From NCBI GenBank assembly GCA_965207885.1, contig OZ242311.1, forward strand, positions 2,144,001 through 2,208,000: a DNA stretch of 64,000 bases, in the 5' to 3' direction. Shown piece by piece: positions 55,140 to 59,959 of this stretch (position 1 is the first letter of the stretch; each line of letters starts with the position of its first letter). The position numbers were made by a program, and so were the translations under genes. The notes under the pieces are model-generated. The model had not been told where the DNA came from, made no database searches, and was given only the letters and a program-made list of their open reading frames with translations. The stretch comes from Candidatus Latescibacterota bacterium. Its GTDB lineage: Bacteria > Latescibacterota > UBA2968.

Positions 55140-55619
55140 ATGGCCCAAAAATACTGGCTTGTAAAGTGTGAGTACGATGTGTGCTCTTTTGAAGAATTGA
55201 GCAATCGGCCCAGTGGGATTGGGTACTGGCGAGGGGTGCGCAATTATCAGGCGCGCAATTTTATCCGCGACGAAATGCAAAAAGGCGATCAGGCACTTTT
55301 CTATCAGTCGAATTGTAAAAATCCCGGTGTTGCCGGTATTGCGAATATTGTGCGTGCGGGATATCCCGATCCATCGCAATTCGATGCCCGTCATCAGTAC
55401 TACGACGAGAAGGCCTTGAAAGAAGATCCGCGCTGGTTTTCTTTTGATGTGCAATGGTCAAAAGCATTTGAGCCGTATATTAGCCTACAAGACCTCAAGA
55501 ACAATCCTCTGCTCAAAGATATGAAGGTGGTTCAGCGCGGACAGCGGTTGTCAATTCTGCCGGTCACAAAGGAGGAGTTTGAGATTGTGTGCGAGATGGG
55601 GGGGCATCTGGCGAGATGA
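55140..55619 (+). CDS. EVE domain protein
   Basis: YWLVK.E, W.GVRNYQARNF, GD...FY.SNC, RLSI.PV. Confidence 0.92.
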   Translation: MAQKYWLVKCEYDVCSFEELSNRPSGIGYWRGVRNYQARNFIRDEMQKGDQALFYQSNCKNPGVAGIANIVRAGYPDPSQFDARHQYYDEKALKEDPRWFSFDVQWSKAFEPYISLQDLKNNPLLKDMKVVQRGQRLSILPVTKEEFEIVCEMGGHLAR

Positions 55620-55682
55620 GAAGGCCAAAGTATAGAAAATGAAATTCTTCAAAGACAGTTCGTTGCAGAGAAAAGGTACATA

Positions 55683-56276
55683 ATGCCGCGTAAAAACAGG
55701 GTTCTCAGCATTGGTGATATTGCCCCCTTATTTACCCTCCCTTCGCATCAACGACAAGACGTATCGCTCGTATCGTATCGAGGTAAAGAACATGTCATTC
55801 TGACGTTTTTTCGGGGAACCTGGTGAAAAAGAAGCCGTCGTCAGTTGGCGATAGTGCAAGAACATATAGATGTTTATACCGAACGCAATGCGACATCTAT
55901 CGCTATCGCAGCAGGACAGCAACTCTGTGAACTGCGCGAATACGCCGAATGGAGTGGTATCACCTATCCGCTTCTGGCGGACGAAGATCGAAGTGCCATC
56001 AAAAGTTATGGGGTCTATCACTGGTACGGCCTGGCGTTTGCTCACAATCTCATTTACAACATTTTGCGTCCAGCGGGATTTTTTATCGACAAACTCGGCT
56101 ATTCGTTATATAACTGGCTCGGTCTGCCAGATCACAGCCTCGTTCACAGTATTGCCCGTCCAGCGACGTTTATCATCGATAAACTCGGCATTATTAGATA
56201 TATGTATATTGGTTCAAATCAGTTTGATTTAGCCGAACAGGAAGAAATTCTCGAGCACTTGAAATTGCTACCATAA
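55683..56276 (+). CDS. Peroxiredoxin-like (AhpC/TSA, thioredoxin fold) protein with in-frame TGA, putative selenoprotein
   Basis: ATG 55683 reads L.IGD.AP.FTLP..VSL..YRG..VIL.FFRGTW-TGA(55824)-KRSRRQL and is in frame with the ORF-track fragment YPLLAD..YGV..RPATFIIDK.G.IRY. Confidence 0.82.
55837..55852 (+). promoter_or_regulatory. Candidate bacterial SECIS hairpin
   Basis: GTCGTC-AGTT-GGCGAT; 6-bp stem beginning at the 11th nt after the TGA, with G at loop position 2. Confidence 0.6.
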
Positions 56277-56400
56277 TTTAAATGAAAAAATAAATAAGAC
56301 TTGACAAAAAATTGGTGATGTTCAAATATTTTTATTGTAAAACCTAAACAGATGTTCCGCTGCCTGACCTCGATAATTTGGGTTAAAATGAGGTGATAGA

Positions 56401-57576
56401 GTGCAGATACCTTCTTCATATCAACCCGGGTATGAAAAAGCACTTCTGACCGATCCCGATCTCGCTAAAACGTACATTCAACACACGCTCATTGGCGATT
56501 CCGATGCCGATGCCCTGATCAATGGATTAGCCGGTATTGACGAGAAGCAACAGAGCGAATTTATCAGGGCTGGAATGGATCTGGATGAGGAAAAACTGCG
56601 TGATGCGCCTCAAGCATTACGGGCGTTTTTTGAGAAGGTCGGGACGCCGCCCGCGTGGTTTGATCCCGAGTCAGTATATCCCGGATGCCGTGGCTTCCAA
56701 GCCTATTCAGATCTGTTTCTTACCTCGTTTGTCGTGGATATTATTGTACAGGGTTTCACTACACTGATCAGCCAATCGTTTTTCACCACAGGAAGGCTGA
56801 CCGATCAGGGGGTGCGGCGGCTAAAGCAAAATATACTTCACCTCCTGGAAATTATGTTGCCGGGTGGCCTGGAGCGATATGGCGAGGGCTGGAAACTGTC
56901 TGTCCGTCTGCGGCTGGTGCATGCACAGGTCAGGCGGCATCTTCTCGCTTCTGAGGTGTGGGACCATGAAGCCCACGGCATGCCGATCAGTGCTGCCCAC
57001 ATCGCGCTCGCGTCCTGTAATTTCTCCGGGATGCTGTTGCGGTCAGCCACGCGAATTGGCGCACGTCTAAACGATGAAGAACGCGACAGTTTTATGCAGA
57101 TATGGCGCTATACCGCTCATCTGATGGGTGTGCCCGAGGCACTCTTGTTCAGCAATGAGACCGAAGCCTGTGAAACATACCGCGTGGGTTATATCTGCGA
57201 GCCGTTCCCCGGTCTGGAAGCTATTGCTATGGCAAACTCGGTGATTGCCTCGGCTCCTTACGTGATCGGTATTAAAGACGAGAAAGAGCGAGATAATCTA
57301 TCTGGTTTTGGGTACCGCCTTTCCCGAGCGTTGATTGGAGACGAACTCGCCGATCAACTCATGTTCCCCAAAAGTCGGACATCTGGGCCCGGGACACTGG
57401 TATATTTGCGGCTGAGGCGCAGAATTCAGGATATCCTCGATGTCCTGCTATGGTGGAGACCGGGTCATCGTACCCAAAGCTTCATGGCCTTGCTCGACGT
57501 ATCTACGCTCGGAGAACATAAAAACAGTTACCGATTACCCGACAAGCTACACGCAGACGAGGCGAAGCCGTGGTGA
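56401..57576 (+). CDS. Oxygenase MpaB / DUF2236 (Lcp-like) family protein
   Basis: GD..AD, P.WFD, RRL, G..SVR.RLVHAQVR, W....G.PIS, WRY...LMGVP. Confidence 0.82.
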   Translation: MQIPSSYQPGYEKALLTDPDLAKTYIQHTLIGDSDADALINGLAGIDEKQQSEFIRAGMDLDEEKLRDAPQALRAFFEKVGTPPAWFDPESVYPGCRGFQAYSDLFLTSFVVDIIVQGFTTLISQSFFTTGRLTDQGVRRLKQNILHLLEIMLPGGLERYGEGWKLSVRLRLVHAQVRRHLLASEVWDHEAHGMPISAAHIALASCNFSGMLLRSATRIGARLNDEERDSFMQIWRYTAHLMGVPEALLFSNETEACETYRVGYICEPFPGLEAIAMANSVIASAPYVIGIKDEKERDNLSGFGYRLSRALIGDELADQLMFPKSRTSGPGTLVYLRLRRRIQDILDVLLWWRPGHRTQSFMALLDVSTLGEHKNSYRLPDKLHADEAKPW

Positions 57577-57655
57577 GGTATGACGGTCTTTATCCACCAA
57601 TATATAAATGAGGAAATCATTCGCTTGGTGAACTCGTCGCCGCACTTAATCCGAA

Positions 57656-59959
57656 ATGGTCGAAGGAGTGTTTCTTTTGCGATTAGAACGCTACACCGCT
57701 GTCATTTTGCGCTATCGATGGTTGGTCGTTGCGCTCGCAACGCTGGTCATGCTGGCATTGACGGCAGGTGTTCGCTTCATTACTGTCACGAACGATTACC
57801 GCATTCTGTTTGGTGAAGACAATCCGCAACTCCTCGCTTTCGACGCTCTGGAGAACACGTATTCGGCCTCCAATACGGCACTGATTGCCATTGCGCCCCG
57901 AGATGGCTCGGTGTTCACCCGCGAGGCGCTTGGCGCGGTTGAAGAATTGACCGAAGCCGCGTGGCGTGCGCCTTATTCCAGTCGCGTCAATTCCCTTACC
58001 AATTATACCCATAGCGAAGCACTCGATGACGATTTGGTGGTCGCTCCGCTCGTTGACGATGCATCTTCTCTGAGCGATGCCGATGTGGTACGTATCGAGA
58101 AGATCGCGTTGGACGCAATCGAAATTGCCGGGCGTCTGGTGTCTCATGATAGGCGTACGGCCGGGGTGGCTATTAATTTTATCCTGCCCGAAAATCACGA
58201 TCAGGCAGTAATCGAAATTACCGATTATCTCAATTCGGTCCTGAGTCAAGCCCGCACGAGCCATCCGAATATCGATTATTACATGACCGGCGATGTCGTC
58301 ATGCATCAGACTTTTGCCGATGTAACGAAGAGCGACATGGAGACTCTGACACCTATTGTATTTCTCATCATTGTAGGTGCCACAATTATTCTCTTGCGTT
58401 CGATTCTCTGCACTTTGGCCATTGTCGCCGTGATCGTGTTTGTCATCAATACGACTATGGGATTCGCCGGCTGGAATGGCGTGGTGTTCAGCCCCACCAA
58501 TGCCGGCGTGCCGATTATTGTCATGGTGATCGCCATCGCGGATTCGATCCATGTTGTCACGAGTGTTTTATTGGGTATGAGGCGCGGCCTGGACAGAAAT
58601 GCGGCGATTGTCGAATCGATCCGCATCAATGCCTATCCGATATTTATTACCTCGGTCACGACGGCGATTGGATTCCTCAGCCTGAATGCCTCAGATTCAC
58701 CGCCTTTTCACATTTTGGGCAATTACGTGGCATTTGGCGTCTTGTGCGCGCTTGTGTACACTATGACGCTATTGCCGGCATTGCTTTCGATTCTGCCATT
58801 GCGCGCGTCTCTTGTGCAATCTCAGAGGACGGCCTTTTTCGACCGCTTTGCTGACTTTGTCATCGCTCGGCGCAATTTTTTGCTCTGGTTCGTCACTGCG
58901 GTTGTCGTCGTTTTGATACTCGGTGTCTCCCGCATTGAGTTGAGCGATAATATGGCGCAGTATTTTGATGATCGCTACGAGTTCCGGCGCGATACGGATT
59001 ATATTATTGATAATCTGACTGGTCTGGATAAGCTGGAATATTCGCTGAGTGCAGGGCGCGAAGGTGGTATTACTGATCCGGAGTATCTGCGCCAGGTCGA
59101 TGCTTTTGCCGAGTGGTACCGGGCGCAACCCGAAGTGACCCATGTCCAGGCATTTTCGGATATTATGAAACGTCTCAATAAAAATATGCACGGCGACGAT
59201 CCAGCTTTTTATCGCTTGCCCAAAGACCCGGACCTCGCGGCGCAGTACCTGTTGCTCTACGAGTTTTCGCTTCCGTTCGGTAGCGATCTCAACGACCGCA
59301 TAGATGTCGCCAAATCCGCTACGCGTCTGAGTGTCGTGACCAGGAATGCGTGGTCTCGAGATTTGCGTGAACTCGATAAGCGTGCGCAGGTGTGGCTCCA
59401 GGCCAATGCACCCGCTTTTGCACACGAAGCATCGGGTCTGAGCATTGTTTTTGCCCACCTTTCCCTGCGAAATATCAATAGTATGTTGCGCGGTACGATC
59501 ACTGCGATGGCACTCATTTCATTCATCCTGATCTGGATTTTCAAAAGTGTTCGGGTGGGTCTCCTCAGCTTGTTGCCCAATTTTATCCCCGCGATTATGA
59601 GTTTTGGCCTGTGGGGCTATCTCGTCGGCCATGTGGGGATTGCCTCTTCGGTGGTGATCGCCGTTGTTTTTGGAATTGTTGTGGATGATACGATTCATTT
59701 TCTGAGCAAATATCTGAAGGCCCGGCGCGATGGCCTTCCCGCACCCGAAGCTGTGCGCTATACCTTTAACACGGTGGGCCATGCATTATGGACGACGACC
59801 GCAGTGTTGTCAGTGGGCTTTCTGGTGTTCGCCACATCGGGATTTGAGGTGAGTTGGGCACTCGGTCTTTTGGTCACGGTTACGATTGTCTTTGCGCTTG
59901 TTGCCGACTTTCTACTTTTGCCAACTCTGCTGATTGCTATTGACCGGAGAAATTCATGA
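57656..59959 (+). CDS. MMPL / RND-superfamily transporter
   Basis: Two membrane blocks with IAIADSIH and GIVVDDTIH; TS.TTAIGF. Exact start uncertain. Confidence 0.9.
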   Translation: MVEGVFLLRLERYTAVILRYRWLVVALATLVMLALTAGVRFITVTNDYRILFGEDNPQLLAFDALENTYSASNTALIAIAPRDGSVFTREALGAVEELTEAAWRAPYSSRVNSLTNYTHSEALDDDLVVAPLVDDASSLSDADVVRIEKIALDAIEIAGRLVSHDRRTAGVAINFILPENHDQAVIEITDYLNSVLSQARTSHPNIDYYMTGDVVMHQTFADVTKSDMETLTPIVFLIIVGATIILLRSILCTLAIVAVIVFVINTTMGFAGWNGVVFSPTNAGVPIIVMVIAIADSIHVVTSVLLGMRRGLDRNAAIVESIRINAYPIFITSVTTAIGFLSLNASDSPPFHILGNYVAFGVLCALVYTMTLLPALLSILPLRASLVQSQRTAFFDRFADFVIARRNFLLWFVTAVVVVLILGVSRIELSDNMAQYFDDRYEFRRDTDYIIDNLTGLDKLEYSLSAGREGGITDPEYLRQVDAFAEWYRAQPEVTHVQAFSDIMKRLNKNMHGDDPAFYRLPKDPDLAAQYLLLYEFSLPFGSDLNDRIDVAKSATRLSVVTRNAWSRDLRELDKRAQVWLQANAPAFAHEASGLSIVFAHLSLRNINSMLRGTITAMALISFILIWIFKSVRVGLLSLLPNFIPAIMSFGLWGYLVGHVGIASSVVIAVVFGIVVDDTIHFLSKYLKARRDGLPAPEAVRYTFNTVGHALWTTTAVLSVGFLVFATSGFEVSWALGLLVTVTIVFALVADFLLLPTLLIAIDRRNS

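Follow-up and report, generated by a model that had tools for sequence, protein, structure and literature searches.

The question raised by this locus is whether a TGA lying within a peroxiredoxin-like reading frame of a Candidatus Latescibacterota genome is an ordinary stop, a defect, or a codon for selenocysteine (Sec). The window analyzed here is a stretch of 64,000 nucleotides from that genome, and a sequence-only reading of it had proposed that a selenoprotein is hidden behind the TGA. The evidence set out below makes it very probable that window:55683-56276(+) is a genuine selenoprotein gene, encoding a small peroxiredoxin-like redox enzyme. Re-translation with TGA read as Sec (U) bore out the proposed frame, which starts with the ATG at 55683, passes through a single in-frame TGA at 55824, and closes with the TAA at 56274–56276 after 197 amino acids (aa) (Table 1). 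In this translation, the N-terminus of the protein is MPRKNRVLSIGD, followed by ...ILTFFRGTW-U-KRSRRQLAIV.... As proposed, the W-U-K-R-S motif of the window gene lacks the second motif Cys and the usual Pro; the loss of Pro is limited to a sub-clade of Latescibacterota, and U-P-N-S is kept in Poribacteria.

Table 1. Features of the putative selenoprotein gene, in window coordinates.
Feature	Position	Strand	Description
Full putative selenoprotein CDS, 197 codons	55683..56276	+	Translation with TGA=U; AhpC/TSA (peroxiredoxin-like) thioredoxin fold
In-frame TGA, predicted selenocysteine codon 48	55824..55826	+	First position of the family CxxC motif
Ser51 codon AGC	55833..55835	+	Site of the second Cys in the CxxC motif; paired with Cys45 in the AhpE alignment
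SECIS-like hairpin	55834..55855	+	6-bp stem 55837-55842/55847-55852, loop AGUU, two pairs below a 1-nt bulge
In-frame 90-nt tandem duplication	56042..56189	+	Copies 56042-56099 and 56132-56189, 74% identical; repeat search

At this locus, the list of open reading frames (ORFs) for the window indeed gives 55845-56276 alone (143 aa, TTG start). Splitting of the gene by annotation pipelines had also been predicted, and the public protein sets searched hold post-TGA fragments of 139–143 aa, named ‘redoxin domain-containing protein’, ‘peroxiredoxin’, or ‘hypothetical protein’. A word-indexed protein search recovered 209 relatives at E ≤ 1e-10, the top ones being 139–143 aa long with a query coverage of 71–73%. 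Three full-length public entries (P0044, P0045, and P0047), which originate from short ENA contigs (794–1449 bases), show W at the TGA position and are most simply explained as code-4 gene calls. None of the entries of this clade in the public protein sets searched carries a selenoprotein name. Apart from the three entries with W, the clade is represented in these sets by post-TGA fragments, a systematic annotation error that is corrected here. A promoter and terminator scan found nothing exceeding shuffled expectation.

The read-through protein scores above the gathering cut-off of Pfam AhpC-TSA (PF00578), in agreement with the AhpC/TSA N-terminus claimed from the sequence (82.4 bits vs. a cut-off of 26, 3.3e-23), and the match covers residues 10–174, spanning the TGA. 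Redoxin is a further Pfam match of the read-through protein, and the Poribacteria form reaches 94.6 bits against AhpC-TSA. In a search with a profile of the orthologues, the best solved relative was AhpE of M. tuberculosis, a 1-Cys peroxiredoxin (1.2e-17). AhpE again came first in the Foldseek search against PDB (E 8.3e-15 for 4x1u_A), with a TM on target of 0.86–0.91 among the AhpE chains listed, followed by archaeal Bcp/PrxQ and ResA. The AlphaFold2 model used here was built from a 91-sequence alignment (pLDDT 84.3, pTM 0.80) and has low confidence at residues 118–153; it replaced an earlier model from 15 close orthologues, which was unusable (pLDDT 37). Residue 48 immediately precedes helix 49–60 in this model.

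Canonical peroxiredoxins carry the motif PxxxTxxC, in which the peroxidatic Cys (or Sec, TxxU) comes last, plus a conserved Arg. In the profile alignment to AhpE, the window protein has Arg44 in place of the Pro, Sec48 in place of the Thr, and Ser51 in place of the Cys, and Arg116 of AhpE is aligned with Pro160. With the positions of the catalytic triad not kept in this alignment, the window protein falls outside the canonical peroxiredoxins, and peroxidase activity is therefore not assured. Models of more narrowly defined families were not reached, with 18 bits against a cut-off of 270 for the PrxU equivalog and 36.9 bits against 120 for the SelL-related NF040769. No model of NCBIfam release 20.0 reaches its cut-off, the best being a ResA subfamily (54.2 bits vs. 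170), and a dedicated model for the clade is absent from that release.

The simplest objection to a selenoprotein is that the locus is a pseudogene, i.e., a CxxC peroxiredoxin-like gene with a nonsense mutation, or that the TGA is a miscalled base or an assembly error. In the public sets searched, gene calling breaks off at the TGA, and the motif Pro and second Cys have been lost in the window genome as well, both of which fit a decayed gene. However, a TGA private to this assembly, the outcome that would speak for such a defect, was not what the relatives showed. In 40 related genomes searched, 21/21 full-length matches outside the own genome carry the in-frame TGA; they share 66–98% identity, come from 19 genomes in two families of one order, and include one with a second in-frame TGA. 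A codon alignment of 20 loci, including the own one, has TGA at the same codon in 20/20, within the context TFFRGTW-TGA-[KR]-R-[ST]-RRQL, and contains no other stop or frameshift. A scan of a species-genome collection confirmed 137 relatives; among the best 80 of them, labeled as Latescibacterota, some Gemmatimonadota, Poribacteria, and two ‘uncultured bacterium’, the TGA is present at 79 loci and replaced by TGT (Cys) in one Poribacteria genome, L069, the genome sets of the three comparisons overlapping. The identities of these 80 loci (54–95%) exclude their being copies of one contaminating sequence. The TGT of L069 and the TGA forms make up a natural Sec/Cys pair. The motifs at the best 80 of 137 are U-PNS at 53 loci, including the Latescibacterota locus L100, U-RRS at 20, U-KRS at four, and U-RRT, U-RNS, and C-PNS at one locus each.

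Selection on the gene points in the same direction. For seven pairs analyzed by the Nei-Gojobori method, dN/dS is 0.09–0.24 in codons 1–47 and 0.13–0.34 in codons 49–197, with a near-saturated dS of 0.7–1.8; purifying selection thus acts both upstream and downstream of the TGA, which argues against a pseudogene. An assembly error is contradicted by independent metagenome contigs from two other studies with the same base: DNA contig X5 spans 55725–55991 with 0 differences, and DNA contig X9 spans 55500–56152 with no difference at 55824–55826. A decayed gene or a wrong base at this position can thus be given a practically negligible probability. RNA-library contigs (X15, X16) touch short parts of the stretch, none spanning the TGA of the window gene. 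The deep ones (depth 57–64) represent the Poribacteria orthologue, with a loose end running through its own TGA, and those of low depth (3.9–5.8) cover 56031–56303 and come from a close relative. One RNA-library contig of X15 (depth 5.8) joins 55672 to 56031, skipping 358 nt with five other letters between, and this junction may stem from a chimeric assembly or from a related strain in which part of the gene is deleted.

Variation in copy number and in TGA content was also seen within one genome. The Latescibacterota genome G025 has three copies of the gene (C3:27771-28346, C4:882383-882958, and C3:20298-20879), in one of which a second in-frame TGA shortens the reading to 113 aa. This copy could be a decaying one or a two-Sec form.

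Reading the TGA as Sec calls for the decoding machinery, and the components that the sequence-only reading had named for a check (selA, selB, selC, and selD) are all represented in the own genome, a single contig of 6.23 Mb. SelA was found with 492 bits, a SelB wing-3 domain with 78 bits in a 647-aa frame adjoining selA, and selD with 369 bits, the last carrying one in-frame TGA itself (C1:5699275-5700198(-)). A tRNA-SeC with the anticodon tca lies beside selD. SelA is present in 40/41 genomes of the relatives set, and the one negative genome (91% complete, 430 contigs) is also without a full-length copy of the gene. It is likewise present in 5/5 further genomes that carry the gene, the Cys-form genome among them.

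Other in-frame TGA codons were noticed in the own genome. A canonical peroxiredoxin-like W-U-P-H-C protein is encoded at C1:3533193-3533516(-), and a second AhpC/TSA-like protein, with the TGA after ...ASTGG, at C1:1178078-1178428(-). Many further peroxiredoxin-like matches with one TGA occur across the relatives. The order to which the window organism belongs looks rich in selenoproteins.

A TGA read as Trp or Gly (codes 4 or 25), or passed by near-cognate read-through, would also keep the frame open, and the W shown by P0044, P0045, and P0047 at this position is in line with such a reading. Against it, TGA terminates 16/41 of the window ORFs of at least 250 aa, among them the EVE-domain gene that directly precedes the locus. 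TGA serves in the window as a normal stop codon, and the code is therefore the standard one. Moreover, the tRNA-SeC is the sole tRNA with a tca anticodon among those reported by Aragorn after filtering, and the column has Cys in 52/52 CxxC relatives and in the natural TGT variant, as is classical for Sec/Cys pairs. Insertion of an amino acid other than Sec is accordingly regarded as very improbable.

The hairpin claimed at 55837–55852 is present, reading GUCGUC-AGUU-GGCGAU, beginning 10 nt past the UGA and having G as its second loop base; it is extended by the pairs 55834/55855 and 55835/55854 (−6.9 kcal/mol). In the bSECIS model, a stem-loop lies shortly 3′ of the UGA and has a G early in its apical loop. 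Taken alone, the hairpin is not above chance. The z-score of the 68-nt fold is −0.86, a hairpin of the loose form follows 76 of the 2154 UGA triplets in the window (3.5%), and an Rfam scan of 55650–56000 at E ≤ 10 gave no match. It is lifted above chance because the TGA and the core bases are kept in 20/20 aligned orthologues. In a sliding analysis of the 20 orthologues, synonymous diversity is 0.0 at codons 52–56 (CGT CGT CAG TTG GCG), the minimum of the gene, and RNAalifold folds the same sequences into the 6-bp stem with the AGUU loop and two more pairs. Within the hairpin of these orthologues, each change affects one side of a pair and preserves pairing (G-C/G-U, U-A/U-G), and none is compensatory.

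A wider test of the pairing used 79 loci with 77 distinct sequences, in which 93.2% of cells pair, compared with 91.2% in shuffles (0/500 shuffles as high). Pair 21:34 is C-G in 32 of the 77 sequences, U-A in 21, U-G in 19, and unpaired in five, and it changes on both sides between clades. Of the 77 sequences, 22 lack pair 22:33 and 12 lack pair 24:31, the mismatches often being in Poribacteria, and 81% of cells still pair when the partner is slid by −3. Because of these Poribacteria mismatches and of the pairing retained on sliding, the support from covariation is modest, and the SECIS reading is backed more by the frozen synonymous sites than by covariation. The hairpin is consistent with a putative bacterial SECIS. 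Both selD and the W-U-P-H-C paralogue have hairpins with G-rich loops at similar distances past their TGA.

The conserved bases after the TGA have another possible use, namely re-initiation, in which case the locus would yield two products, a peptide of 47 aa terminated by the TGA and a protein of 143 aa starting from the TTG at 55845. The TTG at codon 55 is invariant, it is the start that gene callers pick, and an AGGAG-like run follows the TGA in some Latescibacterota copies. That run, however, is missing in the Poribacteria copies, and Leu is also the commonest residue at this position in the CxxC relatives (33/52), which need no restart. The split would fall at the sole invariant catalytic column and leave a thioredoxin fold without its redox residue, whereas the natural TGT variant has a continuous frame and the whole Sec machinery is present. 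Two separate products are thus improbable, and decoding of the UGA as Sec remains the preferred reading.

The replacement of active-site residues was traced among the relatives. An exhaustive profile search returned 447 representatives at E ≤ 1e-10, and those closest at full length carry FFRGTW-C-[PQ]-x-C-R-[RK]-Q, with an ordinary CxxC motif. Alignment of the homologues, which the sequence-only reading had recommended, placed Cys in the TGA column in 52/52 CxxC relatives of a 91-row alignment, where R44 and the Sec/Cys column are the sole invariant columns. At column 51, the 39 Sec-clade rows have Ser (38) or Thr (one), and 51/52 relatives have Cys; no other conserved Cys was found in the Sec clade in this alignment. 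This pattern indicates that, in the Sec clade, the first Cys has been replaced by Sec and the second by Ser or Thr (UxxS).

In a quick IQ-TREE phylogeny with SH-aLRT supports, the 39 rows of the Sec clade are monophyletic (support 100) and sit on a long stem inside the CxxC relatives. The duplication-bearing Latescibacterota form a monophyletic clade (99), placed unresolved among Poribacteria sequences, the monophyly of Poribacteria having a support of 9. L100, which represents a second Latescibacterota form (U-PNS, without the duplication), is sister to the remaining Sec clade. L069, with the Cys form, groups within the Sec forms as sister to one of them (SH-aLRT 98) and thus represents a recent Sec-to-Cys change. 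The distribution of the clade over two phyla with a common habitat label hints at transfer. In the representative search, a protein of 1430 aa (P0121) has five AhpC-TSA repeats, two of which have W-C-P-F-S and W-C-Q-F-S, showing that relatives of the monothiol Cys type (CxxS) also occur elsewhere.

The tandem duplication gives rise to HNLIYNILRPAGFFIDKLG and HSLVHSIARPATFIIDKLG, two copies of a ...RPA-F-IDKLG strand motif. Of these, the second corresponds to the canonical strand; it aligns with the AhpE strand and is modeled as a strand at high confidence. The first copy lies within a clade-specific insertion of low confidence (model residues 118–153) and has drifted to ...RPATSIFGNPG... in one sub-branch. 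Residues ~112–154 are without a counterpart in AhpE in the profile alignment, and the duplication is absent from the Poribacteria forms (161–174 aa) and from L100. A second trough in synonymous diversity (0.01–0.06) was observed in the first repeat copy, at codons 134–141 (56082–56105). It is probably an artefact because the residues there are common to close relatives only.

No gene neighbor common to both phyla was found. The M19 dipeptidase, sulfatase, and EVE neighbors in the window recur in only four near-identical loci, and MpaB-like and MMPL genes recur loosely, in eight loci each. In the window, an MpaB/Lcp-like oxygenase-domain gene and an MMPL transporter gene occupy 56401–59959, near the selenoprotein gene, and genes of both kinds lie near the gene, on either side, in the Latescibacterota loci L032, L035-L037, L041, L054, and L100. 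In Poribacteria (L058:1829-6480, L056-L110), the orthologue stands between a HemN-like radical-SAM gene and ribD, riboflavin synthase, and ribB, all on the same strand, with a gap of 12 nt from the orthologue to ribD in L058. A ribD-like neighbor is present in 51 loci, all from Poribacteria, and the arrangement was not seen in Latescibacterota. Four Poribacteria loci showed neither an FMN riboswitch nor any other family at the Rfam gathering score.

The gene very probably encodes a cytoplasmic thioredoxin-fold protein of ~22 kDa in the AhpC/TSA superfamily, in which UGA-48 would be decoded as Sec by the SelA/SelB/SelD/tRNA-Sec of the genome, aided by the hairpin that follows 10 nt later. Sec48 would then cap the first active-site helix at its N-terminus and be the nucleophilic first position of the ancestral CxxC. 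By single-selenol chemistry, it may attack a peroxide or a disulfide-type oxidant, and the selenenic acid or mixed selenenyl-sulfide so formed would be resolved by an external thiol, either a low-molecular-weight one or a thioredoxin/glutaredoxin-type protein. With one selenol, a hydroxyl at +3, and no conserved resolving Cys, turnover would need such a thiol. In glutathione peroxidases, Sec caps the N-terminus of the first helix of a thioredoxin fold, and in these enzymes (UxxT), as in 1-Cys peroxiredoxins such as AhpE, the oxidised residue is resolved by an external thiol. By analogy, the window protein most likely acts as an oxidoreductase or peroxidase with a thioredoxin fold and one selenol, an external thiol serving to recycle it; the actual insertion of Sec, the substrate, and the reductant are what we infer here.

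A more far-reaching reading combines several of these features and, taken as a whole, is rather doubtful. It holds that the protein is a selenoperoxidase that arose on a peroxiredoxin scaffold independently of glutathione peroxidase and passed between unrelated sponge symbionts. The roles of the peroxiredoxin dyad may have been swapped (T-x-x-C to U-x-x-S), with catalysis moved to the thioredoxin-type N-cap. The 30-aa tandem duplication of Latescibacterota may serve as a new lid or interface beside the active site, and the basic K/R-R replacing P-N may retune substrate choice to anionic oxidants.

With this gene, Latescibacterota and Poribacteria, two candidate phyla that have received little study and are mostly associated with sponges, gain a conserved selenoprotein; title-level searches found no literature on selenoproteins of Poribacteria, Latescibacterota, or sponge symbionts. 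The CxxC relatives, the UxxS clade, and the one CxxS revertant provide a natural series for assessing the value of Sec without a resolving Cys. Among known selenoproteins, the peroxiredoxin-like thiol:disulfide oxidoreductases (UxxC/UxxU, PF00578) share with the window protein the fold, the FxRGxW-U context, and Sec in first position. The W-U-P-H-C paralogue of the own genome, which continues as W-U-P-H-C-RRQL, is of this type and is ~35% identical to the window protein. The UxxC/UxxU selenoproteins, however, keep the second, resolving Cys, whereas 39/39 members of the window clade have Ser or Thr.

M. tuberculosis AhpE (1-Cys; PDB 1xvw, 4x1u) is the best match in both sequence and fold and likewise has a single redox residue; AhpE requires an external reductant. 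Unlike in AhpE, the catalytic residue of the window protein is predicted to be shifted, with Sec48 aligned with Thr42 and Ser51 with the peroxidatic Cys45, and the window protein has an insertion of 38 aa. With glutathione peroxidase (PF00255), for which the motif UxxT is given in a review (PMC13188914), the window protein shares a hydroxyl residue at +3 and a motif without a resolving Cys. In sequence, however, the GSHPx family is not matched, and the resemblance is one of mechanism only.

A UxxS peroxiredoxin-like predicted selenoprotein of the AhpC/TSA superfamily is tabulated with cd02970 in one review (PMC13188914) and with PF13911 in another (PMC9312934), and both credit Zhang & Gladyshev 2007 (PMC1976440); section 12 of that paper and passages of its section 11 do not describe the UxxS family. 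As in the tabulated family, the window protein belongs to the AhpC/TSA superfamily, has one Sec in a UxxS motif, and is a computational prediction only. Unlike the family listed with PF13911, it has no PF13911 match at E ≤ 0.01, and its relatives score 16.7–23.8 bits against a cut-off of 27. Among the public fragments of the clade are some with a precomputed PF13911 label, which places the clade at the fringe of that family. The example accessions in the reviews are not among the members listed for ten NCBI-sourced clusters of the clade. The Latescibacterota form further differs from the tabulated UxxS family in lacking the Pro and in having the 30-aa tandem duplication. A selenoprotein of this kind is already catalogued; what is added here is the clade, the organisms that host it, the K/R-R variant, and the duplication.
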